In this document: piece after piece, positions 2,403 to 51,984 of the stretch
Position numbering within the stretch: position 1 is the first letter of the stretch
How the letters are laid out: every line of letters begins with the position of its first letter
DNA from: an uncultured Acidobacteriota bacterium
GTDB taxonomy: Bacteria > Acidobacteriota > Polarisedimenticolia > J045
Direction: 5' to 3'
DNA length: 64,000 bases
Assembly: GCA_963702425.1 (NCBI GenBank)
Contig: CAVPCQ010000017.1
Span: 1 to 64,000, forward strand
Made by a program: the position numbers and the translations under genes
The notes under the pieces: generated by a model
Seen by the model: the letters and a program-made list of their open reading frames with translations, nothing else
Told to the model about the DNA's origin: nothing
Database searches by the model: none

Positions 2403-2761
2403 AAATCCTGGCCCAGATCCACCCACCTGACACGACCCGCGCGATCCTCGAATGCCTCGGGCTGGCCTCCCGGGCCCCGCCCCGCGCCCCGGCCCGCGCC
2501 GAGCCGGACCCGCTCCCCTTTCCCGGCCTCGCCGCGGCGGACTGAACTCCTGCACGAACGCCCCGGCCCACGCGGGTCCTGACCACCCGAAGGGCCGCAC
2601 TCCGCCTCCACGGCGGCCCTCCGCGCGTCCCATGCGGGCCCGAGCGCCGCGACGCGCGGCGCCCGAACGCGGCCCGCCCCCGCGGCCTGCCGCTCCCCCA
2701 TCCCGCAGGTCCGCGGCTAAGCGCTCCGCCTCAGAATCCGCGGCTTGAATCGCTTATCCTC
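2284..2761 (+). mobile_element. 3' remnant of IS91/ISCR-like element, uninterrupted (empty target for both serine-recombinase elements)
   Basis: Encodes RYLSWAELLRRVFALDALRCPRCSSRMKILAQI; ends CTTGAATCGCTTATCCTC as at 41745 and 51984, resembling oriIS termini. Confidence 0.8.
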
Positions 2762-35940: not shown

Positions 35941-35956
35941 GGCTCGAAGAAACGGC

Positions 35957-35985
35957 CAGGGGGTGGCCGTTCGCGGCTGCCCCTG
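35957..35985 (+). terminator. Hairpin downstream of peptidase gene
   Basis: CAGGGGGTGGCCG-TTCG-CGGCTGCCCCTG; no U-tract, next bases resemble an rve end. Confidence 0.4.
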
Positions 35986-36061
35986 TCCCTCGCCGGCCGC
36001 TACCTCTCCTGGGCCGAGTTACTGCGTCGAGTGTTCGCTCTGGACGCCCTCCGCTGCCCGC

Positions 36062-36568
36062 AGTGCATCACAGACTACGTACCGCGATCTTGAACTTCCC
36101 GATCGTGTCGTTGTCACCCATCGGCCGCATCCGCTGCGAGGGCAGTCGCTGCAAGTGACCCGCCTGCGCCGGTTGGGCAGCGGGGCCTGTTGGTGCGTTC
36201 GTCTGCCCGACGGCTCCACCGGTGTCGTGCCGTGCCGCTGGACCGACCATCCGCTCACGGACGTCCCGCCGGCGTCGTCGGAGGCGCACGGCCGCGCGAC
36301 CCCGCGGGCGCTGCGCGATCTCACGCGACTGCTCGAACGGCTTGTCCTCCCGGACCCGGACCTCGATGCTCCCGCTGGCGATTCGGCAGAAGGAGGTCGG
36401 CATGGGCGAGCAAGGCCGTCTGTTCGAGCGGCACCCGCTCCCGTGGGTGGTGCGACTGTGGAGCACGATCGAGCCCGACGCGCGACGGGAGGTGGTCACG
36501 CTGCTGGCGGAGATGGCTCGCCGGTCGCTGCTCGCACGCGGGTCGGACGGCCCGGAGGAGTCGGATGA
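36062..36568 (+). CDS. DUF5372-like protein, start-less in the integrated state
   Basis: VVVTHRPHPLRGQ..RLPDGSTGVVPCRWTD parallels RITHPFHPLLG..EDGSAQTVPRGWTS at 48278. Confidence 0.6.
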   Translation, partial: SASQTTYRDLELPDRVVVTHRPHPLRGQSLQVTRLRRLGSGACWCVRLPDGSTGVVPCRWTDHPLTDVPPASSEAHGRATPRALRDLTRLLERLVLPDPDLDAPAGDSAEGGRHGRARPSVRAAPAPVGGATVEHDRARRATGGGHAAGGDGSPVAARTRVGRPGGVG

Positions 36569-36578
36569 TGAATCTTGA
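36402..36578 (+). CDS. Small helical protein upstream of recombinase
   Basis: RBS AGGAGG + ATG; conserved in copy at 61912-62088; overlaps recombinase start. Confidence 0.6.
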   Translation: MGEQGRLFERHPLPWVVRLWSTIEPDARREVVTLLAEMARRSLLARGSDGPEESDDES

Positions 36579-37974
36579 CGAGATCACCCCGGCCCAGCGC
36601 GCGCGGTGGGCCTGCGTCTACGTGCGGCAGTCGTCGCTCCACCAGGTCCGCCAGCACCCGGAGAGCCAGCGTCGCCAGCGCGAGCTCGTCGAGCGCGCCG
36701 TCGCGCTGGGCTGGCCGCCCGAGCGGATCACCGTCTTCGACCAGGCCTGGGCGAGACCGCGGCCCGCAGCGGCGAGCGCGCCGGCTTCGACGAGATGGTC
36801 GCCCAGACGGCGTTGGGACAGGTCGGCCTGATTCTCGGCCTCGACGTCTCGCGCATTTCGCGGAGCAACCGGAATTGGTACCATCTGCTCGACATCTGCG
36901 CGATCCGTCAGACGCTGATCGGCGATGCCGAAGGGATCTACGACCCGCGGGCCTACAACGATCGGCTGTTGCTGGGCCTGAAAGGGACGATGAGTGAAGC
37001 CGAGCTGCACATGATGAAGCAGCGCCTGGTCGAAGCGATGCGCAGCAAGGCGCAGCGGGGCGCGTTCCGCTTCCGGCCGGGTCCGGGTTACGTCTGGGAC
37101 GACGCCGGCCGCTTGGTGAAGGACCCGGACGCGCAGGTGCGGGCGACGATCGAGCGGATCTTCGCCTGCTTCGAGCAGCTCGGTACCGTGCGGGCCGCCC
37201 ACCGCGCGCTGCTCGCCGACGGGATCGAGGTGCCCGTCCTGAGCGGTCCCGGCCACCGCACGCGCTTCCAGCCGCCGGACGAAGGCTACCTGTATCGCCT
37301 GCTGCGGAATCCGCTCTACGCCGGGGCCTACGTCTACGGCCGGAGCCAGGTCGTCGAAGCGCTCGATGCGGCGCAGCGACCGATCAAGCGCCTGCGCCGC
37401 CGGGCCCCGGAGCAGTGGCCGGTGCTGATCCAGGATCATCACGAGAGCTACCTCGCGTGGGAGCAGTTCGAGCGCAACCAGCGCCAGATCGCGTCCAACC
37501 GCAAGGGACCGGGACCCGGCCCGCCGCGCGAAGGCCGGTCGCTGCTGCAGGGGCTCTTGCTCTGCGGTCGTTGCGGCCGGCGGATGCAGGTGAGCTATGG
37601 CCGTCGCGGCCGGCACGTGCGGTACACCTGCGGGGGTCGGCGCCGGCAGTTGCAGGGCGGTTCGGCAAGCTGCCCGGACGTCGGGGCGCTGCGGATCGAA
37701 CAGGCGGTCGAGAAGCTGGTCCTGAGCGCGCTGGAACCGCTGGGCGTGGAGGCGCTGCTCGAGGCCTCGGCGCGGCACGCCGAGGCGAGTGTCCAGGAGC
37801 GGGTGCGCTGGGAGCAGCAGATCGAGCGCGCGCGCTACGAAGTCGACCTGGCGCGTCGGCAGTACGAGGCCGTCGTAACCGTTCCGGCAACCGCAGGTTC
37901 CGCCCGGCAAGAATTCGAGCGAGCATGCGCATGCCATGAAACGGGACGTTGGCTGGCGGTTGGATCGGGGACGA

Positions 37975-39588
37975 TCAGTCGGTGGATTCAGGCCGACTCT
38001 GGCGCGCCGCGGCCCAATGCGGCGGGAGGAGTTCCTCGATCTGGCGCTGGGGCCAGCCTTCGGCGAGCTTCTCGAGGACGTCGCGCAGGTACGCCGCGGG
38101 ATCGACGCCATGCAGCCGGCAGGTGCCGAGGACGGTGTAGATCACGGCGGCGCGCTCGGCACCGACGTCGGAGCCGGCGAAAAGCCAGTTGACGCGGCCG
38201 ATGGCGATGCTGCGCAGTTCTCGCTCCACCGGGTTGTTGTCCAGTTCGAGCCGCCCGTCTTGCAGGAACCGACAGAGCGCATCCCACTGGTTGGCGGTGT
38301 ACGTGAGCGCCTGGCCCAGTGGACTCTTCGGCGGCGCCTCGCCGCGCATCCGGTCGACCCAGACCTTGAACTTGGCGAGGATGTCGCGCGAGTACTCGTC
38401 GCGCAGCGCCCTGCGCTGCTCGGGCGTGCAGCTGCGGCCGTCGGCCAACCACTCCACTTCGTACAGCCGGCGGACGAAGGCGATGCCCACGGCGGCGCGC
38501 AGATCGACCGCCAGCGCTTTGTGGTAGTACCGCCGCGCGTGGGCGAAGCAGCCGACCTCGACGAGCCGGGCCGCGGGGCCGCGGAACAGCCGGTCGAAGC
38601 CGGCGTAGGCGTCGGCCTGGAGCCAGCCCTTCCGCCCGGCCAGGACGGCCTGCGGTCCCGCGCCCGACCAGTCCGGGGTGTAGTCGTAGGTCACCCAGCG
38701 CCGGTCGCCGAGATAGGCCCACATGTGGCCCCGCTTCGATCCACCCGCCTTGTCGGCGTCGAGCACCCGCAACGGCGTGTCGTCCACCTTCAGGTCGTGA
38801 GCGGCGAGGGTGTGCCCCCGGATCAGGCGGGCCAACGGCTCGAGCTCGGTCGCGACCGCAGCGACCCAGCCGGCGAGGGTCGAGACCGCCAGATCGACGC
38901 CGTGGCGGGCGTAGATGCGGCGCATCCGGTGCAACGGCGCGTGGTCGAAGTACTTCCGGACGATCACGTCGGCCAGCAGGCCGGGGCCGGGGATCCCACC
39001 GTCGATCGGCTTGGGCGCGGGTGGGGCAATGCTGATCTCGCCCTCGCATTCCGCGCAAGCATCCTTGGCCCGCCGGATCTCGATCACCTTGAAGTGACCC
39101 GGCACCCACTCCAGCATCTCGCTTGTTTCAAAGCCGATGCGCTGTTGCTTTTCCTTCCCACAGACGGGACAGATGCGATCCGCTGCTGCGGGCTCCAGCA
39201 CGACGACCTCGCGCGGCAGATGCCTGGGCAGCGGCTTGCGGATCGCGCGCCGCTTGGGCGGCGCGGCGGGCGCGGGCTCGGGCATGCTGACGGGTTCCGC
39301 CAACTCGTCCGGCGTCGCCTGGGCGGAGGCGAGCACTTGCTCGAGGAACAAACCGAGTTGCGCACTCGGGATCTTCTCCGAGCGGCGGCCGAACTTGTCG
39401 GCCAACAGGCGGGCCAAGCGCACGCCGAGCCGATCGTTCTCCTGCTTGAGCGTGGACAGCAGCGTGACCACGAGTTCGACCGCGTCGGCGTGCCGACCTG
39501 CGGCGAGCAAGGACTCGATCTCGCCGCGGAACGCGTCGATGCTGGCTTGGGTCGCGGGCAGCGTCGCCATGACGCAGGAATCAGACAC
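37975..39588 (-). CDS. tnpC: IS66 transposase TnpC
   Basis: FGRRSEK, CPVCG, VDDTP, QADAYAGF, CFAHARR, DNNPVER, LLPPHW. Confidence 0.95.
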   Translation of the reverse strand: MSDSCVMATLPATQASIDAFRGEIESLLAAGRHADAVELVVTLLSTLKQENDRLGVRLARLLADKFGRRSEKIPSAQLGLFLEQVLASAQATPDELAEPVSMPEPAPAAPPKRRAIRKPLPRHLPREVVVLEPAAADRICPVCGKEKQQRIGFETSEMLEWVPGHFKVIEIRRAKDACAECEGEISIAPPAPKPIDGGIPGPGLLADVIVRKYFDHAPLHRMRRIYARHGVDLAVSTLAGWVAAVATELEPLARLIRGHTLAAHDLKVDDTPLRVLDADKAGGSKRGHMWAYLGDRRWVTYDYTPDWSGAGPQAVLAGRKGWLQADAYAGFDRLFRGPAARLVEVGCFAHARRYYHKALAVDLRAAVGIAFVRRLYEVEWLADGRSCTPEQRRALRDEYSRDILAKFKVWVDRMRGEAPPKSPLGQALTYTANQWDALCRFLQDGRLELDNNPVERELRSIAIGRVNWLFAGSDVGAERAAVIYTVLGTCRLHGVDPAAYLRDVLEKLAEGWPQRQIEELLPPHWAAARQSRPESTD

Positions 39589-39618
39589 CCATCCACGCGC
39601 CGTGTCAAGAGACTAAAT

Positions 39619-40002
39619 CTAATATTGCAGTCCTGCTCGCGCACCACCCGCGCGCGGCTCCCAGCGCGGGCGGCGCCGAGCGCCCGCCAGCTCGATCCCC
39701 TCCAGCATCAGCAGCAGTTCACCCGCTTCGACCTCGAGCACCACCGCCCCCGGCGGCACCTGTCGCGGCAGGTGGAACACGCCGCGCTCGAGCCGCTTGT
39801 AGACGATCACGAACCCGCCGCGGTCCCACCAGAGGCACTTGCAGGCGTCCCCGCGACGATTCCGGAACACGAAGAGATGCCCCGAGAGCGGGTCGTCGCG
39901 CAGGGTCTCACGCACCGCCGCCGACAGGCCGTCGAACGAACGCCGAATGTCCACCGGATCGACGGCCAGGTGGATCCGCACCGCCGGCGGCAGCGTCAGC
40001 AC
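39619..40002 (-). CDS. tnpB: IS66 accessory TnpB
   Basis: PVDIRRSFDGL..LFVFRNRR..KCLWWDRGG..YKRLERG. Confidence 0.92.
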   Translation of the reverse strand: MLTLPPAVRIHLAVDPVDIRRSFDGLSAAVRETLRDDPLSGHLFVFRNRRGDACKCLWWDRGGFVIVYKRLERGVFHLPRQVPPGAVVLEVEAGELLLMLEGIELAGARRRPRWEPRAGGARAGLQY

Positions 40003-40373
40003 GGGCCCTGCAGCTCGCGCACGAGCGCCGCCAGCTCGGCGACTCCGAAGCGCCCGGCCAAGCGCGCGACGCCAGCGGCCGTCACCACCTCGAGCGCGCT
40101 CCCCGCACCGTTCGGCGGCGTGGCGATCAGCTCCACCAAGCGCACGGGCATCGCGCGGGAACCCTCCGCGAGCCGCCTCCGCCAGCGGTACAGCCGCTCC
40201 GCGGAGTAGCCTTCGCGACCTGCGAAGGCCCACACCGACAGCCTCGAGCCGCGCTGCCGCTCCAGAACCGCCCGCGCCTGCTCCGGCGTCCAGCGCTTCG
40301 AATCCTTGCTGCTTGCCGCACGCGAACGTGACCGGCCTCGCGACATCGCCATGCCTCCCGATGCGGGAGTCAA
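39996..40373 (-). CDS. tnpA: IS66 accessory TnpA
   Basis: SRLSVWAFAGREG..LYRWRRRL HTH; position next to tnpB. Confidence 0.82.
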   Translation of the reverse strand: MTPASGGMAMSRGRSRSRAASSKDSKRWTPEQARAVLERQRGSRLSVWAFAGREGYSAERLYRWRRRLAEGSRAMPVRLVELIATPPNGAGSALEVVTAAGVARLAGRFGVAELAALVRELQGPC

Positions 40374-41745
40374 GCATCGCGCGCGGCGCGGGGGGCGCGG
40401 AAGATGCGGTTGCCGGAACGCTTACAGGCCGTCGATCCGGCCCACCGCCTGGTCGCCGGGGAGCTGGAGCGGCGCTGGGAAGTCGCCCTGAAGGCGCTGG
40501 AGGACGTGCGGCGCCGGGCGGAGGCCCAGCTCCGCACGCTCGAGCCGGCGCTCGGCGAGGACGACCAGCGACGGCTGCGGCAGACCCTCGCAGCGCTGCC
40601 GCGCCTGTGGCAGGCGGCGACGACGCGGGTCCAGGACAAGAAGCGGGTCCTGCGCTGCCTGATCGAGAATGTCGTCGTCGCGATTCCGGACGACGGCCCG
40701 GAGGTGCGGGTCGAGGTGCACTGGGTGGGCGGCGAGATGACACCGCTGGCCGTGCGGCGCGGCCGCCCGGGCGAGACACGTTTCATCGCCGACGAGGCGC
40801 TGGTGGCGCTGGTGCGGGACCTTGCCGTGGAGTTCACCGATGACCAGATCGCGCGGATCCTCGGGCGCAAGGGGCTCAAGACCCCGACCGGGCTGCCCTT
40901 CACGCGGCTGCGCGTGACCTCGATGCGTGGCAACCACGACCTCCCCGGGCTCGGACGCCAGCCGTTGGACGGCGCGGATGTGTACGACGCCGATCAGGCC
41001 GCCGAGAAGCTCGGCGTCGCGACCAGCACGGTGATCCGCTGGGTGGAGCTGGGCCTGCTGAAGGGCAGGCAACGCACGCCCGGTGCCCCGTGGCGCATCC
41101 GCGTGACGGCGGACGACCAGCGCCGGCTCACCGAGGTCGACGCGCCCGCGGGCTGGCTCCCGCTCAAGGCTGCCGCCCTCGCCCTGGGTGTCAGCCAGCA
41201 GACGGTCTTGCACCAACTCAAGGGCGGGCAACTCGAAGGCGTCCGGGTCCGGGTCCGAGCCCGATCGGCCTGGCGAATCCACGTCCCGTCAACGCGTTAC
41301 CCATCACGGACGACGCTCTTCGACTGAGCGGTATTCGAGGTGACTGAGTATGTGCGACACACCCCGCGCTGCTCGTCCCGCATGAAGATCCTGGCCCAGA
41401 TCCACCCGCCCGACACGACCCGCGCGATTCTCGACTGCCTCGGGCTGGCCTCTCGCGCCCCGCCCCGCGCGCCGGCCCGCGCCGAGCCCGACCCGCTCCC
41501 CTTTCCCGGGAACGCCGCCGCGGACTGAGCTCATCGACGAACGCCCGGGCCCTCGCGGGTCGTGCCAACCCGGAGGGCGGGACTCCGCCTCCGCGGCCGA
41601 CCTCCGCGCGTCCCTTTCGGCCCGCTCGCCGCGACGCGCCGCGTCCGACCAGGGCCGGCCCCCGCGGCTGGCCGCTCCCCCTTCCCCGGCAGGCCTGCGG
41701 CTACGCTCTCCGCCTCAGAATCCGCGGCTTGAATCGCCTATCCTC

Positions 41746-42617
41746 AGCACGGCCTGCTGCACCCACCGATCCACGACATTCGGGATACCGAGTCCCCGTT
41801 CGCCCCCGCCCGGCTTCGGAATCCAGACGCGGCGGATGTCTCCCGGGCGGTAACTCCCGTCCAGCAGTCTGCGTCGCAACGACCACAACAGACGAGGCGA
41901 AGCTGCGACCACCTCGTCCACGCTGCGACCGTCCACTCCGGGTGCCCCTTTGTTCCTTGCAACGTTCCTCAGGGCCACCGCCAGGTTTCGCGGCTCGGCA
42001 ATCCGGTCGAGCAGCCGATCCGGGGTGACCCTACTGGTGCCGCAGTCGTTTGTCGCGCTGTTCTTCGCTATGTGCAGCAGAAAGTCCCTCTCCCCGGATG
42101 CGTCCGTGGAGCGTGGCTTCCCGCCCCCTTGCGGGCTGGCGGCGAACGCGAAGACCAATTGACAGGACTCCGGCTTTCTCAACCCATCTCCCCCTTCGCT
42201 CGACCGACTTTCATCGGCTTCATCGCTACTACGAGGAGATCTGACTTCTCCACCGGCGTCGAGCGCTCGTCCTTCTCTCCTCGCGCTCTACCGCTGCCTG
42301 CGGACCCGTGGAGATCTCCCTGGGTAAGAACGAGCAATGTCCCGCCGCCGCCGCCCTCAATACCGTCCTGCCTCGACTGGATATCGGGCGTCGCGTTGAC
42401 GGGCACGCTCACCCGGATCAGGCCGGCCTTACGAGGGTTCACTTGCGTTCGGTGCTGCGGTTTGTCTAAGGCTTCTACCCCACACGCCCTCGCGGGTTCG
42501 GCCCGGTCAGCAGCCTTGAATGGCCGAGCCTCGTGCAGTTGCCTTCGACTCACGGTTGCCTCCAGTAGGCCCCGCAGGGGACTTCCACCCCCAATCACTC
42601 ATCCATGCCAGGCACAC
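41746..42617 (-). mobile_element. 5' part of group II intron (RNA 5' domains and RT N-terminus), truncated by IS91-like end
   Basis: 5' end GTGTGCCTGGCATGG at 42617; ORF from 42182 with NKGAPGVDG, RRVWIPKPGG.R.LGIP..DRWVQQA. Confidence 0.85.
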
Positions 42618-42751
42618 CCGGTCGCCCTCCGGGCTCCCTCCGCGCCCACCGACGGACCCTTCTTCCGATCACGTTGCCGTCTCGTCATGGTCGTCCCCTT
42701 GGACATCAGTCTCTCCTCTAAACTGTGTCCAAGAAAACCGGGTCCGCCTCA
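42618..42751 (-). mobile_element. IS3-family left-end remnant hosting the intron
   Basis: TGAGGCGGACCCGGTTTTCTTGGACACAGTT end, RBS, ORF start ...EGARRAT. Confidence 0.55.
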
Positions 42752-42779
42752 GCGGGCCGTAGCGGAATAATGACAGGTG

Positions 42780-44180
42780 TCATGAATTGTGTCTGCGGAA
42801 TGCCGAGTCGATTAGTTGGTGAAGCCACCCACGACGTGGCAACTTAGGCAGGTGCGTGTCCTCGCCTGCCCTCTGTGAATACAGGTTCAGAAGACCGGCC
42901 AAGTCTCCTTTCGCCGACGGGTCATCCTCTCGCGTCAAGAGATCTCGGACTACCACTTCAACGGCCTGTGTCGATCGGCCCTCCAGCACCGATTCCTGCG
43001 CAATGTGCGTCGGGACCGTGGGCAAGTCCCAATGATTGTCCAACATCTGCGCGAGAGCGACCGCCAATCCCCGCGCGAGTTTGTAATCGCCGGCCTCGTG
43101 TGCGCACAACATCGTCAGGCCGGCCCACGATAGCCACGGAAGACCCGTGAGAACACCCGACAGACGAGTGAGGTCCTCGAGGCACTCTGCGCCCTGTCCG
43201 AGGTGGTACATGCAGACTGCGCGATTAACACGAGCGAAGATGTTGTTCTCCGACTTAGCCATCGCCGCCTCGCAATGAGGAAGCGCTGTGGCAAAATCGT
43301 AAGATTTCTGCAGGTCGAGGGCCCGCCCGAGGAGATTATCGTAATCGCGGCGCCGTTCACGACATGACTCAATCTCCGGGCGCCATTCGCTGGCCAGGGT
43401 GCCTTCGACCAGCCACTCCTCCACGCTAGCAAAGAGCTCAGTGGCCTTCTCAGGAAAATCGAATCGGGTTGCGATCCTCATCGCAGCGAGCCACGATTCA
43501 AGATCCCACGGGCAGCGGGCCAACGCCTTTTCCAGCACGGTGAGCGCTTCCTCGAACCTGCCAATGCGGCACAAGACGCCGGCCGATGTCCGATACGACC
43601 ACGGATCGTTTGGTTCGATGTCCCGGGCCTCTTCAAGCAGGGTGAGCGCCTCGCGTTCGCGGTGAAGGCTAGCAAGACAACCCGCTTTGTTCTGCAGGGC
43701 GTGGGAGTGTCTTGGATTGTGTTCAAGAATTTGATCGTAGACTCGGATTGCGCGACCGAGATCGAGTGCCTCTACCGCCGCGTGCGCGGTTTTCACAAGG
43801 GGTTCGCAGAACGCCTCATGATTCGGCCGTTCTGTCCCCACGTGCTCCTGAAAGATCACGATAGCTCCACCGGTCTCGTAAAATTCGGTGTGCAGCATCC
43901 TAACATTGGCTTGCGCTAACTCGACTTGGTGTTTCTTAGTAAAGGAGAGGATTGGGATATCACGCTGCTTCTTCTCCGCCTGTGGCGTGCCAGGCCGATA
44001 CTTGAAGATTTTCCCTACGAACCAGATGAGGCCACTTCGCTCGTTTCTAAGCGGGTAGACGAACGCTTCGGCCCCCTCGGCCATCAAGGACTCGAAAACA
44101 TAGGGACAGCCATTGATGGAAACGCGTTTGCCTGGAACGTCAGCGATGGAATGCGTCGTTAGGTCCAGCGAATTGTTCAT
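42780..44180 (-). CDS. TPR protein with kinase N-lobe-like N-terminus (probable gene cassette)
   Basis: LMAEGAEAFVY..VGKIF then multiple TPRs; follows core site GTTGGGC. Confidence 0.7.
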   Translation of the reverse strand: MNNSLDLTTHSIADVPGKRVSINGCPYVFESLMAEGAEAFVYPLRNERSGLIWFVGKIFKYRPGTPQAEKKQRDIPILSFTKKHQVELAQANVRMLHTEFYETGGAIVIFQEHVGTERPNHEAFCEPLVKTAHAAVEALDLGRAIRVYDQILEHNPRHSHALQNKAGCLASLHREREALTLLEEARDIEPNDPWSYRTSAGVLCRIGRFEEALTVLEKALARCPWDLESWLAAMRIATRFDFPEKATELFASVEEWLVEGTLASEWRPEIESCRERRRDYDNLLGRALDLQKSYDFATALPHCEAAMAKSENNIFARVNRAVCMYHLGQGAECLEDLTRLSGVLTGLPWLSWAGLTMLCAHEAGDYKLARGLAVALAQMLDNHWDLPTVPTHIAQESVLEGRSTQAVEVVVRDLLTREDDPSAKGDLAGLLNLYSQRAGEDTHLPKLPRRGWLHQLIDSAFRRHNS

Positions 44181-44400
44181 GGCTCGTCCGAGATCCTCTC
44201 ATTCGCGTATGCGACGTAGAGGGGGGTGCCAAGCATGACCCTCTTTGGCCCAAGTACGAATTGGTCGCTGATCTCCCCGTGCAGAAGTGTCTTGGCCAGA
44301 AACTCAAGCCGAACTTTGGGTCCGTCCATGCTCTTGACCGCCCGTGCAACGGCACTGAGTGACTGCGATGTGCTGTTGGATCACGCCTCACGTTCGCCCA

Positions 44401-46333
44401 ATCGGGATAGGGAGGAAGCCTCACGGCTCCCCCCCTCCCACACCACCGCACGTACGGATCACGTATGCGGCGGTTCGGCGGATTCAGTAGTCGGGTCATC
44501 CCTCCACCAGACTCGGGAGCCCGAGCGCCGCGAAGTACCGCGCAGGCAGTGCGATCGCGAGTGCCGGGCTCTGACTCAAGCGCCACGGCCCGTGAGCTGA
44601 CTTGGCGGTATTCCAAGCCAGATCCCGAGAAATGCCCCGTTTCCTCAGTTCCCGGTAGCCCCGCCGACCCCATTGCTTCCAGTGGTAGCAGCGCAGCCGG
44701 CGCCGGATCCACTTGTCCAGATCGAGAAGGGGTGAGGTCACCTCGGCGAAGCCGTAGTACCCTCGCCAGCCTAGGAGGTTGGTCCTGAGCTCCTTCATGA
44801 TCTGACGCATCGTGCGTCCGCGCGTTCGACTCGTCAGCTCTCGCACCTTGGCCTTGAACGCCAGCAGAGACTTCGCGCTCACCTTCCGCCGGGGTGACCG
44901 GCCACGGGTAAACGTGAAGCCGAGAAACTTCCGGTTGGAGGGCCGGTCCACGGCGCTCTTGGCCTCGTTGACCGCGAGCTTGAGTCGGCGCTCCAGAAAA
45001 CGGGTGACACTGGCCTTCACGCGCTCGCCCGCACGACGACTCCGGACGTAGATGTTACCGTCGTCGGCGTAGCGGACGAAGCGGTGGCCGCGCCTCTCCA
45101 GTTCCTTGTCGAGGTCGTCCAGCAGCAGGTTCGCGAGCAGCGGCGAAAGTGGGCTGCCTTGCGGCGTCCCCTCCGCCGTCGGTTCCACCACCTTCTCCAG
45201 CGTGAACACTCCGGCCCTCAGGAACCGGTGGATCAACCGCACCACTCGGCGGTCTCGCACACGCGCCCGCACACGGCACAAGAGGACGTCGTGGTGGACC
45301 CGATCGAAGAACCGCTCCAGATCAAGGTCCACGACCCACGCGTACCCTTCCCGGATGTAGGTCTGCGCCTGCTCCACCGCCTGGTGCGCGCTGCGCCCCG
45401 GACGAAAGCCGTAGCTCGATTCCGAAAACGTGGGGTCCCAGTCCGCTTGCAGTACCTGCAGCAAGGCTTGCTCGACGAACCGGTCGAGAACCACCGGCAC
45501 TCCGAGATTTCGAGTACCTCCCCCAGCCTTCGCGATCTCGACTCGCCGTACAGGCTGGGGGTTGTAGGTACCCTCCAGCAGGGAGGTCCGGATGGCCGGC
45601 CAGTGTGCCTTGAGGTGGGGCGCTAAGCCATCCACGGTCATCCCGTCGATGCCCGGCGCTCCACGGTTGCGTCGGACCTGGCGGAGCGCACGCAGGAGAT
45701 TCTCCCTCTCCAGCACCCGCTCCATCAGGGCTGTCCCTCCCACCGGAGCGTCTTCTCCTCGTGTCCCAATCGCGGTTTCATCCCCCGGATTCGCCAGGGG
45801 CAGCAAGAGCTGCCTGCCGGATGCAGTACCGTCATTCGACACGATGGTGACTTCTCCCTTCCTTCAATCCCCTCGCGGGGCACCGTTCGGGCCTTCATCC
45901 CGCGGCGTTGCGGCTCGGCCTATCCGTTGCCCCGCCTTTCGGCTTTGGGGTGCCTCACTAGCCTCGCCTGCCTCGGGCCTACTACGCCCTCTGCTGACTT
46001 CTCCCGGCCGGTCGGCGTCGGTTGCCCGAAACCCAGTCCTTGCGGACGACCGGGAGATCTCCCAGGGTAAGACACAGATCGTTCCGCGCGTGGACGCCGG
46101 ATTTATAAAGCACACCCCGTTGCGGATGGAGGACTTCGCGGTCACGTGCCCGCTCGTCCCGGGTGCGCCACACCTCATATCCGGTTCCTGTTCGTCGCCC
46201 CGCGCGTTTTGGATTGGGCTTCCTCCAGACCCCAACTCGCGTTGACGCCCTTGCCCTTCTCCTTGCCTTCGGCTCCGCGATAACCTGGCACGGGGACTTC
46301 CACCCCGCTCGATCTGTGCCATGCCTGGCACAC
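44401..46333 (-). mobile_element. Complete class C group II intron inserted in an attC site
   Basis: 5' GTGTGCC at 46333; domain V/VI GAACCGCCGCATACGTGATCCGTACGTGCGGTGGTGTGGGAG; 3' end CCCGAT at 44401. Confidence 0.92.
44496..45842 (-). CDS. ltrA: Group II intron reverse transcriptase/maturase, no endonuclease domain
   Basis: GTPQGSPLSPLLAN, RYADD, FLGF, LLGWRGYY. Confidence 0.95.
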   Translation of the reverse strand: MSNDGTASGRQLLLPLANPGDETAIGTRGEDAPVGGTALMERVLERENLLRALRQVRRNRGAPGIDGMTVDGLAPHLKAHWPAIRTSLLEGTYNPQPVRRVEIAKAGGGTRNLGVPVVLDRFVEQALLQVLQADWDPTFSESSYGFRPGRSAHQAVEQAQTYIREGYAWVVDLDLERFFDRVHHDVLLCRVRARVRDRRVVRLIHRFLRAGVFTLEKVVEPTAEGTPQGSPLSPLLANLLLDDLDKELERRGHRFVRYADDGNIYVRSRRAGERVKASVTRFLERRLKLAVNEAKSAVDRPSNRKFLGFTFTRGRSPRRKVSAKSLLAFKAKVRELTSRTRGRTMRQIMKELRTNLLGWRGYYGFAEVTSPLLDLDKWIRRRLRCYHWKQWGRRGYRELRKRGISRDLAWNTAKSAHGPWRLSQSPALAIALPARYFAALGLPSLVEG

Positions 46334-46388
46334 ACGCCCAAGGTCAGCGGCGCGGCTTGTCCGCGTCCGCTGCAGCGCCTGGTTCGGC
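46334..46388 (-). other. attC site (about 60 bp when rejoined with 44396-44400)
   Basis: R'' GCCGAAC, L'' GCTGCAGC, L' GCTGACC, R' GT|TGGGC; R'' complements the cassette's own 5' core GTTCGGT at 6/7. Confidence 0.8.
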
Positions 46389-47369
46389 AGTTTCCCTGTC
46401 CTTGAGGATTGCCTGGATCTTCTCCACCACATCCGGTGATGGCAGGTTGCGCTGTCCCAGCACCAGAGATGCGAAGTTATCAGCCAATATCTCCTCGGGG
46501 TGAATGATGTATTCGGTGTTCTTGCCCACCTGCTCGAAGAATCCGGACACTTGCTGGATGTCCACGAGCATCGGCTTCGGGCCGTCGAACATCGGTGTGA
46601 CCTTGTACCCATCATTGGGCCGCTCAACCAGAAGCAACCGGAACTGAAGGTAGCTGAAGAACTCCCCACCACGGTCCACGGAGTACTTCTCAACGCTCGA
46701 AAACAGAATGGGAATAGCCCACTGTTCCTTGCCGGAGACGTTCACGCGGATGCAATGATCATTCTTCGGTGCGTCGGGGTTCGTGAGCTTTCGCGACTTC
46801 ATCTCCACTGGGAACTCAACCTCGCCGCACTTTACGAAGCCGATAGCGGCGTAGAGTGTCTCACGCAGACCAGGATTCGCTCTGGACATGATGTGAAAGA
46901 GTTCATGGGAAATAAGCTTCTGCAGACTGGCAACAGGTGCATTCAGAAGGCCAGTCGGCAGAACAATGGCATTGGCTCGGGTATACGCAGTTCCACCGTC
47001 TTCCTTTCCCGTGGTCTTGATGATCAACATCTCTTCCGGAAGCGGCAACGCCATCGCTTCAAGCGTTCTCTGCATGCCCTGCAAGGCGGAGTTGATCTTC
47101 TGCTTCTCTGCGTCGTTCCATTCGAGTACGTTCTTACCGACAAACTCCAGAAACTGGCCTTCCGAGACCTCCTTGTCTGTCTTCAGCCGTGCGGCACGGT
47201 CGAAAGGACTCATCCGCTCGACGAAATCATCACGGTTGGTCAGAAGTCGCTGACCTTCCGCGAGGGAAGCAAAGGAAAGCCTGACACCCCCGCGGCGTGC
47301 CACCTGCGCCATCACAGTCTTGGGGCCAATAAACAATAACGCCAAGACTGCGACGGACCTTGTATTCAT
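46344..47369 (-). CDS. Cassette-borne secreted HExxH (zincin-like) protein
   Basis: Signal peptide, AYTR, SHELFH, HPEEILADNF; ATG 11 bp after core site with RBS AAGGAG. Confidence 0.75.
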   Translation of the reverse strand: MNTRSVAVLALLFIGPKTVMAQVARRGGVRLSFASLAEGQRLLTNRDDFVERMSPFDRAARLKTDKEVSEGQFLEFVGKNVLEWNDAEKQKINSALQGMQRTLEAMALPLPEEMLIIKTTGKEDGGTAYTRANAIVLPTGLLNAPVASLQKLISHELFHIMSRANPGLRETLYAAIGFVKCGEVEFPVEMKSRKLTNPDAPKNDHCIRVNVSGKEQWAIPILFSSVEKYSVDRGGEFFSYLQFRLLLVERPNDGYKVTPMFDGPKPMLVDIQQVSGFFEQVGKNTEYIIHPEEILADNFASLVLGQRNLPSPDVVEKIQAILKDRETAEPGAAADADKPRR

Positions 47370-47380
47370 CTCATCTCCTT

Positions 47381-47457
47381 ACCGAACGCTGCGTTCAGCT
47401 GCGGGCGGCCCCGCGTCCGTTCCCGTCGCGATAGCCGCCGGGCCGCCCGACAGCTGC
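47381..47457 (-). other. attC site interrupted at L'' by IS1111-like element
   Basis: CAGCTG.CGGGCGGCCC...GGGCCGCCCGCAGCTGAAC-GCAGC-GTTCGGT stem. Confidence 0.7.
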
Positions 47458-47650
47458 TATGATGGAATAGACTCCTCCCGATGACTGAACGCGGCATCGA
47501 TCGTGCCAAAGTCATCGTGCACTGGGTGTACCGCCCAAGGAGAAGTCCACCATGGATTGTAGCGCATCGATCGCCGTAGACGTGGCCAAGTCGGTCTTCG
47601 AAGTCGCGGTGTCGACCCAGCCAGGCTGGGTCTCCGAACGGCACCGGCTA
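47458..47650 (+). mobile_element. IS110/IS1111-family left end and transposase N-terminus
   Basis: Subterminal ATAGACTCCTCCC, GGAGAAGTCCA before ATG 47552; IAVDVAKSVFEVA DEDD N-terminal motif. Confidence 0.75.
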
Positions 47651-48277
47651 ACCCCAATGCCGGTTAGTTTGGCCGAAGCCGGCGTCATGTCAGGGTTTCC
47701 GGCGGTAGCTGGACATCTTGACCTTGACCGCCCGCGGATAGCGTCGGGCGCCTCGTCGGGGTGGCAAGACGAGCAGCGCGGATTGGGCGTCGAGCTGCTC
47801 GAGACGCCGCGGGACGACGCCGGGGCTGGCGGCCCAGACGGTGAGCACCGCCCCTCGCCAGCGAGCGGCTCTCCCGGCTCGAGGACGGCCGCCTGCTCTA
47901 CCGGCTCAAGCGCCGCTGGCGCGACGGCACGACGGCGCTCGTCTTCGAGCCGCTCGAATTGATCGAGCGGCTCGCCGCGCTGGTCCCGCCGCCGCGCCGA
48001 CACCTCGTCCGCTATCACGGGGTCCTCGCCCCCGCCTCCGCGGCGCGCCCGTGGATCGTGCCCCAGCCGCCCACCGAGGACGGGATCCCCGCCGACGACC
48101 TCACTCCTAAGGCGTCACCCCCGGCCCCGGGTCCGGGCCCCACGCCGCCGGCTGACCGGCCTCCCGGCGCTCGGTCTCCCGACCCCGGCGGCCGCTACCT
48201 CTCCTGGGCCGAGTTACTGCGCCGAGTGTTGGACCGACCATCCAACTGCACCCGGCACCGCCGCTGCGGCGCGCCGG

Positions 48278-48562
48278 ATGCGGATCACGCATCCGTTTCA
48301 CCCGCTGCTGGGGCATGAGTTCGTCATCCTGGACGAGCGCCACAACCGCCACGGAGATCGCGTCTGGTACCGCGCTGAGGACGGGTCCGCGCAGACGGTG
48401 CCGCGCGGCTGGACGAGCCTGGCGGAGGCCGATCTCTTCGCGACGATTGCGGCCGGGCGGGCCTGGTTTCGGTGGGACGACCTGCGGCGGCTGGTGGCGT
48501 TGATCGAGGAGCTGCGGGAGGGGCTGGGCCCGGGGGACGCGGGGGGCGGGGGTGTCAAGTGA
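48278..48562 (+). CDS. DUF5372-like protein (N-terminus completed across attP)
   Basis: RITHPFHPLLG...VPRGWTSL...FRWDDLRRL. Confidence 0.75.
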   Translation: MRITHPFHPLLGHEFVILDERHNRHGDRVWYRAEDGSAQTVPRGWTSLAEADLFATIAAGRAWFRWDDLRRLVALIEELREGLGPGDAGGGGVK

Positions 48563-48739
48563 ATTTCGTCCATTTTGTCTGGAGTATTATGCTCGTAGGG
48601 GCAGGGGACGCCGCATCCGATGGGGCCTTGACCAGATCGATATTGCACAGAAGAGCGAAAGATGGCACTCGGCCCATGGACGCGGTTCTTGATGTGTATA
48701 TAATGGCCCTGACACACGGCGACGACCCAGGAGGAGACC

Positions 48740-49203
48740 ATGGCCGCACCGAGCGACGACTCCAAGCGCCGCGAGCTGGCCCGCGCGGGGCGCTGCACCC
48801 CCACGCCGCACAGGTCACGGATCCGCTCTTCGCGCGCGAGCCGTTCTTCGACCGCCGCGACGCGGTGCAGGTCAAGTACGAGATGCTGCGCAGCGTGCGA
48901 GCCGAGGGCCGTCCGGTGAGCCAGGCGGCGGCGCAGTTCGGCTTCTCGCGCCCGACCTTCTACGAGGCGCGAGCGGCCTTCGAGCGCGCCGGTCTGCCGG
49001 GTTTGCTGCCGGCGAAGAAAGGGCCGAAGCGCGCGCACAAGCTCTCGGCGGAGGTCCTGGCCTTCATCGACCGGCAGCTCGACGCCCGGCCGGCGCCGAC
49101 CATGGAGGCACTCAGCGCGCGGATCCACGAGCACTTCGGCCGGTCGGTCCATCCCCGCAGCATCCGGCGCGCCCTGCTGCGCCGCACAAAAAAAAACCCG
49201 TAG
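48740..49203 (+). CDS. HTH protein (apparent 1-bp indel in G run at 48787-48790)
   Basis: RBS AGGAGG + ATG 48740; FFDRRDAVQVKYEMLR..FGFSRPTFY..KKGPKRAHKL. Confidence 0.75.
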
Positions 49204-49490
49204 ACCCGCGCCCGCCGGGGTCCGGTCTCGCCGCGCACTACGAGCGACTGCGGGAGGGTGTGCTCGGCGGCGACCGCCGGCCGTCGATCGGCGAGACGAT
49301 CGTCCGTGGCCAGGGACTGTGGGCCTTCATCGCGCTCGCCGCGGCCGAGGCGCCGAGCGGCACGCCACCGCGCGTGGTCACGGGATCGAGCGGCGCTCTG
49401 CCGGCACCGGCGGTGGCCGAGCGGGGCGCGCTGCTCGCGGCGTGGGCCGAGCTCGTCGTCGCCGTCGTGCAGCGCCCGGAGGTCTCATGA
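49203..49490 (+). CDS. Small ORF, probably reached by -1 frameshift from the HTH gene
   Basis: Open -1 frame from the A9 run through HYERLREGVLGG to stop at 49490; ATGA overlap with recombinase. Confidence 0.6.
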   Translation, partial: DPRPPGSGLAAHYERLREGVLGGDRRPSIGETIVRGQGLWAFIALAAAEAPSGTPPRVVTGSSGALPAPAVAERGALLAAWAELVVAVVQRPEVS

Positions 49491-51580
49491 CCGAGGCCAC
49501 GCCACAGAAGGTCGCCGCGACCCACCTGGCGCGCCAGGCCTTCCTCTACGTCCGCCAGTCGACGCTGCGCCAGGTGGTCGAGAATCCGGAGAGCACGCGC
49601 CGGCAGTACGCGCTGCGCGAGCGGGCCAGCGCGCTGGGCTGGCGGGCCGAGCAGATCGTCGTGATCGACTGCGATCTCGGTCGTTCGGGCGCGACGGCCG
49701 AGCGCGAGGGCTTCCAGCGGCTGGTCGCCGAGGTCGGGATGGGGCGGGCCGGGATCGTGCTCGGTCTCGAGGTTTCCCGCCTGGCCCGCAACTCCACCGA
49801 CTGGCACCGCCTGCTCGAGATCTGCGCACTGACCGAGACGCTGATCCTCGACGAGGACGGCCTATACGATCCGACGCAGTACAACGACCGTTTGCTGCTC
49901 GGCTTGAAGGGCACGCTCTCGGAGGCCGAGCTGCACCTGCTGCGCGCGCGGATGCGCGGGGGTCTGCTGGCCAAGGCCCGCCGCGGCGAGCTGGGCCTCG
50001 GTCTGCCGGTCGGCCTGGTCTATGACGAGCTGGGGCGCGTCGTGCTGCATCCCGACGCGCAGGTGCGCGAGACCCTGGCGCTGTTCTTCCGCACCTTTCA
50101 GCGCACCGGGGCGGCTTGTGCGACGGTCAAGTATTTCTCGACGGAGCAGATCCCTTTCCCCGCGCCGACCCGCCCGGGGAGTCGCTCGGCGCAGGTCGTG
50201 TGGGGTCGGCTCAACCTCACGCGGGCCGTCAGCCTGCTGCACAACCCGCGCTACGCCGGGGCCTTCGCCTACGGCCGGCGCCGCGCGCGGCGGCAGCCCG
50301 ACGGCCGCTTCCAGACCACGCGGGTACCGCGCGACCAATGGCTCGTGCTGCGCCTCGAGGCGCACCCGGGCTACATCGCGTGGGACGAGTTCGAGCGCAA
50401 CCAGGAGCGGCTCGCGGCCTCGGCCCGGGCCTACGGGCTCGACCGCCGCGACGGCCCGCCGCGCGAAGGCCCGGCGCTGCTCCAGGGGCGCGTGCTCTGC
50501 GGCCGCTGCGGCGCGCGGATGACGGTCCGCTACCATCAGCGACGCGGCCAACTCGTGCCGGACTACGTCTGCTGTATCCGGACGCTGCAACACCGCGACC
50601 CGCCGTGCCAGGTCCTGCCCGGCGGCGCGGTCGACCGCGCGATCGGGCGTCTGATCGTCACGACGCTGACGCCCTTCGCCCTCGAGCTGACGCTCGCCGT
50701 CCAGGCCGAGCTCGAAACCCGCCTCGACGAGGCCGACCGGCTGCGCGGCCAACAGATCGAACGCGCCCTGCACGAGGCCGAACTGGCCCGACGCCGCTAC
50801 CTGCAGGTCGATCCGACGCATCGTCTCGTCGCCGCCTCGCTCGAGGCCGACTGGAATGACCGCCTGCGCGCGGTCGCCGAGACGCGCGAGCGCGTCGAGC
50901 ACCAGCGCGACGCCGACCGCGGCGCTTTCGACGAGCAGACCCGGCAGCGGATCCGCGACCTCGCCGCCGACGTCCCGGCCGTCTGGGACGATCCCGCCAC
51001 ACCGCCGCGCGAGCGCAAGCGGATCCTCGGTCTGCTGCTCGCGGACGTCACGCTGGCCCGGCAGGACGACGAGATCACGCTCGCGGTCCGCTTCCGCGGC
51101 GGCGCGACGACGACGCTTCGCGTCCCGCTCCGGATCGGTCCCTGGCGCGGGCGGAAGACCCATCCCCAGGTCGTCGCACGGGCCGCGACGCTGCTCGCCT
51201 CCCACACCGCCGGCGAGGTCGCCGCGCGACTCAACGCGGAGGGCTTCACCTCCGGGGCCGGCCTCCCTTTCAAGCCGGACACCGTCGAGTGGATGGGCCG
51301 GCACTACGGGCTGACCAGCCGACGCGACCATCTGCGCGCTGCCGGCCACCTCACCGCCGTCGAGCTCGCCGCACGGCTCCGCGTCAGCGTCGCCCGCGTC
51401 GGCTGCTGGCGCGCCGAAGGTCGGCTCACGGGAGCGCGCTGCAACCAGAAGGACTGGCTCTACGACCCGATCGAGCGGCAGTCAGCGTGGATCCGGGAGC
51501 GTGCGGCGTGCGAAGATCGACCCCTCGACAGGCCGCGCGAAAACCGCACGATCACAGCGGCGACACGGGGTGCAGTATGA
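49487..51580 (+). CDS. Large serine recombinase with zinc ribbon and C-terminal HTH
   Basis: YVRQST, SRLARN, LHNPRYAG, CGRCG; RBS GGAGG; stop lies inside attR. Confidence 0.93.
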   Translation: MTEATPQKVAATHLARQAFLYVRQSTLRQVVENPESTRRQYALRERASALGWRAEQIVVIDCDLGRSGATAEREGFQRLVAEVGMGRAGIVLGLEVSRLARNSTDWHRLLEICALTETLILDEDGLYDPTQYNDRLLLGLKGTLSEAELHLLRARMRGGLLAKARRGELGLGLPVGLVYDELGRVVLHPDAQVRETLALFFRTFQRTGAACATVKYFSTEQIPFPAPTRPGSRSAQVVWGRLNLTRAVSLLHNPRYAGAFAYGRRRARRQPDGRFQTTRVPRDQWLVLRLEAHPGYIAWDEFERNQERLAASARAYGLDRRDGPPREGPALLQGRVLCGRCGARMTVRYHQRRGQLVPDYVCCIRTLQHRDPPCQVLPGGAVDRAIGRLIVTTLTPFALELTLAVQAELETRLDEADRLRGQQIERALHEAELARRRYLQVDPTHRLVAASLEADWNDRLRAVAETRERVEHQRDADRGAFDEQTRQRIRDLAADVPAVWDDPATPPRERKRILGLLLADVTLARQDDEITLAVRFRGGATTTLRVPLRIGPWRGRKTHPQVVARAATLLASHTAGEVAARLNAEGFTSGAGLPFKPDTVEWMGRHYGLTSRRDHLRAAGHLTAVELAARLRVSVARVGCWRAEGRLTGARCNQKDWLYDPIERQSAWIRERAACEDRPLDRPRENRTITAATRGAV

Positions 51581-51984
51581 ATGACGCTCCTTCGCTCTGG
51601 ACGCCCTCCGCTGCCCGCGCTGCTCGTCCCGCATGAAGATCCTGGCCCAGATCCACCCGCCCGACACGACCCGCGCGATTCTCGACTGCCTCGGGCTGGC
51701 CTCTCGCGCCCCGCCCCGCGCGCCGGCCCGCGCCGAGCCCGACCCGCTCCCCTTTCCCGGGAACGCCGCCGCGGACTGAGCTCATCGACGAACGCCCGGG
51801 CCCTCGCGGGTCGTGCCAACCCGGAGGGCGGGACTCCGCCTCCGCGGCCGACCTCCGCGCGTCCCTTTCGGCCACTTCGCCGCGACGCGCAGCGCCCGAC
51901 CACGGCCGGCCCCCGCGACCCCTTCCCCGGCAGGCCCGCGGCTACGCTCTCCGCCTCAGAATCCGGCTTGAATCGCTTATCCTC

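Follow-up and report, generated by a model that had tools for sequence, protein, structure and literature searches.

Can a mobile element keep one of its genes without a start codon for as long as it stays integrated, and complete that gene only on leaving? This question is raised by a stretch of 64,000 nucleotides from an uncultured Acidobacteriota bacterium (GenBank assembly GCA_963702425.1, contig CAVPCQ010000017.1, positions 1 to 64,000 of the forward strand; hereafter the window). An earlier examination of the letters alone (the sequence-only reading) had pointed to two divergent serine-recombinase elements, A and B, in each of which a DUF5372-like gene appeared to be split by integration and rebuilt when the element ends are joined in a circle. 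We compared these elements with an unoccupied copy of their target and with relatives in other genomes, and predicted the complex of the DUF5372 protein with the recombinase. Our reading is that the DUF5372 gene is split, that it would be expressed only from the excised circle, and that its product would dock on the element's large serine recombinase (LSR) and shift the preference of this enzyme. We put the probability of this reading, taken as a whole, at about 0.6.

Integration cuts the DUF5372 gene close to its start codon

The host genome has a G+C content of ~70%, and the region consists of nested mobile elements. A Pfam search of this genome returned five DUF5372 matches, all on this contig; three begin within the window (near 36113, 48284 and 61623), the other two past its end. 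All five insertions (the A-type copies A1 and A2 and the B-type copies B1, B2 and B3, the last two beyond the window) occupy copies of one target, the 3' part of an IS91-like transposase gene. A sixth copy (~2323–2400), within a 3' fragment of an IS91-like (Y2_Tnp) transposase gene, is empty. Because the window holds this unoccupied copy, the ends of A1 and B1 are exact to the base; they were set by comparing the empty target with the occupied copies, independently of reading frames. B-type elements insert at the TT of GAGTGTT/CGCTC (2357–2358 in the empty site), and A-type elements 26 bases further on, after CTGCCCGC (junction after 2384 in the empty site). Element coordinates and reading frames agree with those proposed from the sequence alone. 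In public contigs from two runs (X1 and X2), 48228 is joined to 51591, with 3362 bases skipped and two bases ambiguous; this joint is the empty site, not the circle.

Target and element B1:

2323–2410 (+): unoccupied target, attB for both element types; sequence continuous where the other five contig copies are interrupted
47899–48230 (+): target gene left of B1, C-terminal part of an IS91-like transposase (Pfam Y2_Tnp PF04986, E 2.5e-8)
48231–51592 (+): element B1, 3362 bp, with genes for DUF5372, a helix-turn-helix (HTH) protein, a small open reading frame (ORF3) and the recombinase (empty-site comparison; 3362-base skip in the X1 and X2 contigs)
48231–48252 (+): P' arm of the attachment site attP, 14 bases and then ACTGCACC at 48245–48252; mirrors the right arm
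48230–48562 (+): DUF5372 gene body, from a junction Trp codon (48230–48232) to the stop (48560–48562) (Pfam PF17342, E 9.1e-23, 80.5 bits)
48677–48704 (+): sigma-70-like promoter, 3' of DUF5372 and 5' of the HTH gene (TGGACG, 16-base spacer, TATAAT)
48740–49203 (+): HTH gene, frameshifted (Pfam HTH_28, HTH_32 and related families)
49260–49490 (+): ORF3, stop overlapping the recombinase ATG at 49487 (no Pfam or NCBIfam family)
49487–51580 (+): LSR of 697 residues (Pfam Resolvase, E 8.2e-21; Recombinase; Zn_ribbon_recom)
51567–51592 (+): P arm of attP and start module (GGTGCAGT at 51569–51576, ATG at 51577, four codons, crossover TT at 51591–51592)

The left junction of B1 reads GAGTGTT/GGACC (start 48231) and the right junction GCTCCTT/CGCTC (end 51592). 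The right end contributes 16 bases, namely an ATG, four codons and one T, and this ATG (51577–51579) overlaps the TGA stop of the recombinase (51578–51580). The left end opens with GG, the second and third bases of a Trp codon, and 18 further codons are open up to the ITHPFHP motif, with which the Pfam DUF5372 model starts.

The attP reconstructed from B1 is a palindrome of the form GGTGCAGT, 14 bases, TT, 14 bases, ACTGCACC, symmetric at 17 of 24 positions, and its TT is also present in the empty site. Judged by its sequence, it has the properties of an LSR site: ~50 bp, two imperfectly symmetric arms and a 2-bp crossover shared with attB. The same dinucleotide is found at both ends in 31 distinct elements. 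With Resolvase, Recombinase and zinc-ribbon domains in B1 and in the pieces of A1, and a coiled coil inserted in the zinc ribbon of the B1 model, the predicted enzymes fit the LSR class. attP falls within the first 13 codons, at the 5' end of the DUF5372 gene. The right 8-mer includes the GGTG of the ribosome site, and the P' arm of B1 doubles as codons of the N-terminal stretch of DUF5372. The site thus carries two codes, and the frame from the start codon to the left 8-mer follows from site geometry. In B1 and A1 the crossover lies beyond the end of the recombinase reading frame; in the other loci this frame stops no later than the crossover.

A-type elements:

36062–41367 (+): element A1, a serine-recombinase element, dead copy (ends set against the empty site)
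36062–36400 (+): DUF5372-like body of A1, no start codon before its THRPHP motif (Pfam PF17342, E 1.3e-5)
36403–36578 (+): ORF3-like gene of A1 with a GAAGGAGG ribosome site, overlapping the recombinase start at 36567 (no Pfam family)
36567–37866 (+): 5' part of the A1 LSR gene, frameshifted after 36745 (Pfam Resolvase, Recombinase and Zn_ribbon_recom; alignment with A2)
37867–40425 (−): IS66-family insertion in the A1 recombinase gene (Pfam DDE_Tnp_IS66, E 5.8e-83 at 37975–39588)
40426–41327 (+): 3' part of the A1 recombinase gene, TGA stop at 41325–41327 (Pfam HTH_17 domain)
41337–41367 (+): right-end translation start module of A1 (GAGGTG at 41337–41342, ATG at 41350, five codons to the element end)
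61572–64000 (+): element A2, an intact A-type copy that passes the window end and reaches contig position 64319

In A1 and A2, GAGGTG stands 7 bases before the ATG, and the two start modules are identical save for one base upstream. The left ends of A1 and A2 are in frame with the right-end ATG across the joint, and in A2, as in A1, no start codon precedes the motif. Reading A1 from 36062 to the motif reveals no ATG, GTG or TTG, which bears out the claim that the integrated A gene has no ATG of its own before this point; in the integrated element the frame is open into the flank, with a chance GTG at 35963. The DUF5372 score of A1, 25.5 bits against a curated Pfam cut-off of 25 bits, is borderline, and the likeness of its ORF3-like gene to the ORF3 of other elements was judged by eye. 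We call A1 a dead copy because, compared with A2, its recombinase gene lacks one base after 36745 and carries the IS66-family insertion. The latter is 2559 bp long and has an apparent 8–9 bp target duplication, AGGCCGTC(G). The two divergent elements thus share the split design, each in frame across the joint, as the sequence-only reading had it.

The split is conserved among relatives

Relatives of the B-type protein were found in 436 of 597 matched stretches, and the best 80 of the 436 were kept as loci. In these 80, the hosts are Proteobacteria, Acidobacteriota, Planctomycetota, Verrucomicrobiota, Gemmatimonadota and others, with one archaeal bin. This bin, assigned to Candidatus Argoarchaeum ethanivorans (an assignment taken as given; locus L061), holds a complete element with a G+C content of 40%, crossover AC and the same split. 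The typical element is ~3.3 kb long and encodes DUF5372, the HTH protein, the small ORF3 and the LSR. All 80 fetched loci have the motif with an open frame 5' of it. At ~3.2–3.3 kb downstream of the motif, where the locus reaches that far, there follow a near-invariant GAGGTGCAGT, ATG or GTG, AAG, and eleven bases ending in the crossover dinucleotide.

Element boundaries were also defined by copies that lie in differing flanks of the same genome, for which we used the locus groups L017/L020/L021, L044/L049/L068 and L070/L071 and three copies on pNGR234a (NC_000914.2, Sinorhizobium fredii NGR234). The right boundary lies exactly 16 bases downstream of the start codon's first base, and the left boundary falls within the junction codon, one base in; both gene parts are therefore in frame. 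The same split appears in all three left ends and in the two right ends of pNGR234a that were read. Among A-type relatives, a locus from another family of the phylum (L104) shares this layout at 50% identity in the DUF5372-like part, with a GAGGTG-like site, an ATG and five codons at its right end and an in-frame body at its left end. It lies in an IS91-like gene at Cys-Pro-x-Cys codons.

To place boundaries across all loci, an initial attempt took the best 8-mer anywhere and misplaced many left ends; it was replaced by searches that use the shared dinucleotide. A frame-blind search, run on 81 loci, required only this dinucleotide and the best arm symmetry. The right arm was missing from the locus in 31 and a dinucleotide match in one; among the 49 scored, the two parts are in frame across the joint in 46. 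The three misfits have low symmetry scores and look like misplacements. A start-blind search, which ignores start codons and ribosome sites alike, asked only for the symmetric core G[CT]A.T in both arms. It covered 82 loci; after removal of 12 with a short left flank, 12 with a short right flank, nine unpaired and six duplicates, 43 distinct arm pairs remained, and 41 of these are in frame.

ATG (23 pairs) or GTG (8 pairs) occupies a fixed place in 31 of the 43 pairs, and in 27/27 of those with an element length of 3.29–3.41 kb; the remaining 12 pairs have odd lengths and look like chance pairings. At the mirror place in the other arm, ATG or GTG is found in 0 of the 31, the triplet being mostly TGA or CGA. 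The start codon and the Shine-Dalgarno-like GAGGTG are conserved in the right arm and not in its mirror. Circularizing many elements in silico, as the sequence-only reading had suggested, therefore yields an in-frame start at a fixed place, and frame continuity across attP among homologues is not random. On these sequence comparisons, the split layout is confirmed to exceed chance.

The N-terminal stretch has coding character

To assess the part of the gene between the junction and the domain, 68 distinct left ends were compared over the 19 codons that start with the junction codon and end with the Ile of ITHPF. Stop codons number 1, 33 and 64 in the three frames, and the single in-frame stop belongs to a pseudogene (L057). 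No ATG, GTG or TTG occurs between the junction codon and the domain in 42 of the 68. The codon two before the domain encodes Phe in 35 left ends and is GTG in 16, another Val codon in 13, an Ile codon in two, CTG in one and ATG in one, the sole ATG being that of B1. The residue at this place is always hydrophobic, which suits an internal position better than a start. Between junction and domain lie 53, 56, 59 or 65 bases depending on the sub-family, so that differences are of whole codons only. Four features thus go beyond site geometry: a start codon in one arm only, the lack of any other start, an open linker with whole-codon indels, and Phe or Val before the domain. As judged from these alignments, the N-terminal stretch shows coding character.

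Annotations reflect the split. In a profile search, 128 of 149 newly listed representatives bear the motif, with N termini of anything from 1 to 127 residues, and with lengths so scattered gene callers give DUF5372 no common start. In the third pNGR234a copy, the RefSeq start of DUF5372 is annotated as ATA, because the internal GTG of the other two copies is GCC there.

We also considered that DUF5372 might be produced fused to the product of the interrupted target gene. This idea was rejected: in B1 the frame of the target is offset by one base, and an in-frame stop lies upstream of the junction in 57 of the 68 left ends, the other 11 running off the locus.

The only conserved promoter lies downstream of DUF5372

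The genes are ordered DUF5372, HTH protein (HTH_28, HTH_32), ORF3 and recombinase, with ORF3 overlapping the recombinase start. A scan of the linear sequence 47900–51900 found one promoter site, compared to 0.0 expected in shuffles. This single site is the internal one at 48677–48704, and no promoter-like site was seen near either end of B1. Alignment of ~60 loci revealed a conserved promoter between the DUF5372 and HTH genes, with the consensus TTGACA, 17 bases, CATAAT, which a strict regular expression had missed. DUF5372 lies upstream of the only conserved promoter and would therefore be transcribed with the operon only if transcription crosses attP, i.e. in the circle.

Three repeats of ~20 bp, of the form TGTAAAG..AATTATGCCGC, accompany the promoter in the same ~60 loci (48560–48740 in B1). 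Two are direct and lie at or overlap the DUF5372 stop, and the third is inverted and lies over the −10 element. These repeats are probably the operators of an autoregulated operon. B2 and the contigs of four public runs have one base at 48783 that is missing from the HTH gene of B1, whose 154-residue frame is thereby broken; the gap reflects a true lesion or else an error of assembly.

ORF3 (~60–140 residues) ends on or over the recombinase start codon, as seen in the window (49260–49490 and 36403–36578), in L017, L044 and L061, and at 34918–35184 of NC_000914.2. It matches no family in Pfam or NCBIfam, and DUF5372 likewise has no NCBIfam model. RefSeq labels ORF3 'transposase' in pNGR234a. 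We regard ORF3 as a candidate excision factor.

The data up to this point bear on an alternative without any switch, in which attP overlaps the 5' end of the gene by compactness and DUF5372 is made in both states from internal, flanking or non-canonical starts; the reading frame across the junction would then carry no regulatory significance. B1 does have an ATG of its own at 48278, two codons before ITHPFHP, at the place where 16 left ends have GTG. A protein begun there would start close to where the Pfam model does and would keep every predicted contact residue (see below); it could therefore come from integrated copies if these are transcribed. Chance start codons occur in the flank of 18 of the 57 left ends that have an in-frame upstream stop, and only one of the 149 newly listed proteins, P0166, starts like the junction reading frame. 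In addition, the N-terminal stretch is predicted to be disordered (pLDDT ~52) and to lie outside the predicted interface. Its conserved part, 'S-T-A-P', is the left 8-mer read as codons; since it coincides with the P' arm, its conservation is that of the DNA site and not of the protein. Yet production in both states fits poorly with Phe (TTY) at the place of the internal start in about half of the left ends and with a stretch that mostly holds no start codon, nor does it account for the skewed stop counts and whole-codon indels or for a start codon and GAGGTG that are conserved in the right arm and absent from its mirror. The only conserved promoter is on the wrong side of the gene, and many elements lie antisense inside other genes, so host read-through into the left end is unlikely. 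Overall, we consider an overlap without a switch improbable.

A predicted complex places DUF5372 on the recombinase

The DUF5372 protein, modeled from an alignment of 49 sequences (mean pLDDT 81.3), is predicted to have 15 disordered residues followed by a five-stranded SH3/KOW-like barrel and two helices. A fold search gave no PDB match at E <= 0.001; KOW and SH3 barrels headed the list, without functional assignment. For the complex, we used the 697-residue recombinase of B1 (29-row alignment) and its DUF5372 protein of 110 residues (49 rows). The ipSAE was 0.76 in three runs, compared to 0.00 for the best of three controls, the pLDDT of the partner was 71, and the runs share at least 70% of contacts. 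As a rough guide, with own alignments used, the ipSAE mark is reached by 58 of 80 solved complexes and by 2 of 110 mismatched pairs.

In the predicted interface, recombinase residues 337–342, 393–413 and 479–541 contact DUF5372 residues 21–26 (the invariant HPFHPL) and 69–99. The recombinase model has zinc-ribbon strands at 336–378 and long coiled-coil helices at 379–440 and 446–480; the predicted site is therefore the zinc ribbon and the base of the coiled coil.

Large serine integrases have recombination directionality factors (RDFs), such as phiC31 gp3, Bxb1 gp47 and SPbeta SprB, which are expressed from the integrated prophage and drive excision. An RDF binds its cognate LSR at DBD2 or the coiled-coil base, stimulates attL x attR recombination and inhibits attP x attB recombination. 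One report describes RDFs as predicted to bind the LSR at the zinc-ribbon/coiled-coil base (PMC12286644), and another describes RDF binding as repositioning the coiled-coil subdomain (PMC11722253). DUF5372 is thus predicted to bind the recombinase at the RDF docking place, and the earlier guess that it acts as a directionality factor or integration cofactor gains support to the extent that this model holds. Unlike the RDFs, DUF5372 would be available by its split design only after excision, which suggests an opposite or different role.

That the predicted binding place equals the known RDF place (PMC12286644) also fits another proposal, that DUF5372 is a classical RDF which, made from circles, stimulates attL x attR recombination in trans on other copies and so causes an excision burst in multi-copy hosts. 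Hosts with several copies do exist, with five on this contig, four loci each in CAVQAZ01 and CAWFUH01, and three plus a fragment in pNGR234a. Such a scheme would need another route for the first excision, however, and a circle that produced an RDF would prevent its own integration and, having no replication gene, would be lost. We find a classical RDF unlikely for these reasons.

SH3/KOW-like barrels often bind nucleic acids, and the predicted fold, together with the three conserved promoter repeats, one of them inverted over the −10 element, raises the prospect that DUF5372 is a circle-specific transcription regulator that binds these repeats and shuts off or raises the operon once the element is free. 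The HTH protein of the element is a more obvious binder of the repeats, though, the invariant HPFHPL falls within the predicted LSR interface, and the resemblance to KOW and SH3 barrels falls short of E 0.001. This makes a regulatory role of DUF5372 at the promoter very unlikely in our judgment.

A proposed mechanism and the evidence against it

In the mechanism that we favor, A and B would be members of a widespread group of small multi-copy elements moved by an LSR. Integration cuts the DUF5372 gene after the fifth codon, attP lying in its 5' end. The ribosome site, start codon and five codons are kept at the right end, where they adjoin or overlap the LSR stop, and the remainder is left startless at the left end. 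In the integrated state, the internal promoter would transcribe the HTH gene, ORF3 and the LSR gene, and then flanking DNA. In the excised circle, this transcript would cross attP, and DUF5372 would become the last cistron, translationally coupled to the LSR. The protein would dock at the coiled-coil base and zinc ribbon and shift the preference of the LSR in the free element, most likely towards integration and away from renewed excision, for example in competition with an excision factor such as ORF3. A circle without a replication gene must integrate or be lost, and by this reasoning a pro-integration or anti-excision role is the most coherent. Sequence comparison shows the ends, the frame, the conserved split, the coding N-terminal stretch and the promoter; binding to the LSR is predicted, and circle-only expression and the direction of effect are inferred.

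Several points weigh against this reading, beginning with the internal and flanking starts, the near-absence of junction-type starts among the listed proteins, the predicted disorder and the double use of the P' arm described above. Since one geometry is common to most loci, much of the agreement in frame is inherited, and the independent events are fewer than the loci counted. The right arms of the mirror-arm profile were chosen with a pattern that demands RTG, so that on the start codon the start-blind search is the only unbiased one. Both complete copies in the window, A1 and B1, are damaged. The circle joint 51592–48231 was not found in Logan contigs of X1, X2, X3 and X5 over 48000–51800, contigs being prone to drop rare forms. 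No junction transcript or peptide was seen, and no RNA run is listed for the stretch. Finally, the direction of effect follows from reasoning, and a factor at the RDF site would by precedent favor excision.

Distribution and targets

The DUF5372 family is large, with 2524 clusters at 50% identity reaching E 0.001. Relatives occur in 133 plasmid records, 59 from Sinorhizobium and 38 from Rhizobium. pNGR234a carries three element copies and one fragment:

33989–37258 of NC_000914.2: full copy near 34 kb, with DUF5372, HTH, the small gene labeled 'transposase' and the recombinase
265859–269128 of NC_000914.2: full copy near 266 kb, with the same four genes
from 289024 of NC_000914.2: copy near 289 kb, with the first three genes among the annotations listed

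These copies are the repeated four-gene sets of y4b/y4p type on the plasmid, whose members are annotated only one by one. A RefSeq annotation carries the family name 'Y4bD/Y4pK family protein', and we take y4bD, y4pK, y4bA and y4pH to be the y4b/y4p-type names of element genes on this plasmid.

Across the relatives (L006–L085), each sub-family has its own target, located in conserved parts of other transposase genes. Sorting targets by regular expression proved too strict, leaving 28 of 32 as 'other', and a Pfam search of the flanks worked better: 7 of 10 flanks match transposase families at E 0.001 or better. The matches are to IS110-type DEDD (two), IS66 TnpB (one), rve (three, one of them below the Pfam cut-off) and the Mu transposase C-terminal domain (one). 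Of the remaining flanks, two have only weak HTH_21 and HTH_32 matches and one has no match. In the window, the target is the IS91-like Y2_Tnp gene (2323–2400, 47899–48230 and 51593–51780). In most cases the element is inserted antisense to its target gene. From their positions, the elements look like hyperparasites of insertion sequences (ISs). In the window, a frame at ~2020–2230 (+), just 5' of the empty target, resembles by eye the C terminus of the IS21 helper ATPase IstB; since it abuts the empty target, this copy of the IS91-like gene would itself have been truncated by another insertion.

A more far-reaching version of our reading would make the split gene a state sensor, with the circle-only protein docking as a reverse RDF or anti-RDF and committing the free circle to integration, and would make the family a group of undescribed serine-recombinase 'insertion sequences', hyperparasites in IS91, IS21, IS66, IS110 and Mu-like transposase genes. 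We offer this version as tentative.

Other features of the window, judged from their translations, lie outside the elements:

41715–42182 (−): between A1 and B1, a second reverse-transcriptase fragment of the same kind as the next
44496–45842 (−): reverse transcriptase with a YADD motif, resembling a group II intron protein
53769–58439 (−): protein of 1556 residues in which numerous YD/RHS-type repeats are combined with a variable C-terminal end, a layout found in polymorphic toxin systems

Comparison with known systems and implications

An attP within a gene of the element is known from two settings, and we compared the DUF5372 elements with both. The SSV1-type 'suicidal' tyrosine integrases of archaeal viruses and plasmids are described in a review as having attP in an element gene that is split by integration and whole in the circle, and the passages concerned call gene-splitting recombinases exclusively archaeal (PMC8371274). 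There, the tyrosine integrase gene itself is split in two large halves. In the DUF5372 elements, by contrast, the serine recombinase stays whole, attP is inside DUF5372 rather than the recombinase gene, and what is split is a small accessory gene, from which only the ribosome site, start codon and five codons are detached; the hosts, moreover, are mostly bacteria.

The second setting is integration-dependent immunity, in which a tyrosine integrase exchanges the 3' end of a repressor gene and the repressor is stable and active when integrated. Mycobacteriophage BPs and its relatives are reported to have attP inside a regulatory gene whose product differs between the integrated and free states (PMC4557955). 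The sequence-only reading had drawn this analogy. It holds for the location of attP in a gene; it fails for the position and the outcome, since in the DUF5372 elements attP is at the 5' end, the start module is lost, and the integrated form is startless and should be silent.

State-dependent expression from joined ends is also known at the level of transcription. The insertion sequences IS911 and IS30 and those of IS110 type form promoters at the circle junction, and Tn4451 has a joint promoter for TnpX. ICEKp1 and ICEclc are described as having a 3'-end promoter, with joined ends giving state-dependent expression (PMC13023037). In all of these, control is exerted on the transcription of a recombination gene, whereas the joint of the DUF5372 elements completes a coding sequence and would thus act on translation. 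It also puts the gene at the far end of the operon, and the gene so gated is a putative cofactor, not the recombinase; the conserved promoter is internal rather than built at the joint.

The principle of an attP within a gene is therefore already known from SSV-type integration and integration-dependent immunity; what differs here is the serine enzyme, the split gene for a putative cofactor, the cutting of the start from the body and the position at the far operon end. We found no paper on DUF5372, PF17342 or y4bD, y4pK, y4bA and y4pH in a search mostly without subscription journals, so that an earlier account, for example in papers on pNGR234a or in supplements, is possible. Broader searches on serine recombinases with circular forms or insertion sequences likewise turned up nothing on the DUF5372-element family.

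For the family, these results give DUF5372 a testable function. In integrated copies, its true start is invisible to gene callers. With three copies on pNGR234a and relatives in so many plasmid records, a tractable model host exists. The elements appear to be compact and multi-copy, to use a serine recombinase rather than a DDE transposase, and to insert into conserved parts of other transposase genes, which bears on competition among mobile elements within genomes. LSRs are leading tools for genome integration, and a central question about them is what sets their direction. If our reading is true, the synthesis of a cofactor would be tied to the topology of the element, which would be a new control principle and could supply a part for self-limiting integration circuits.

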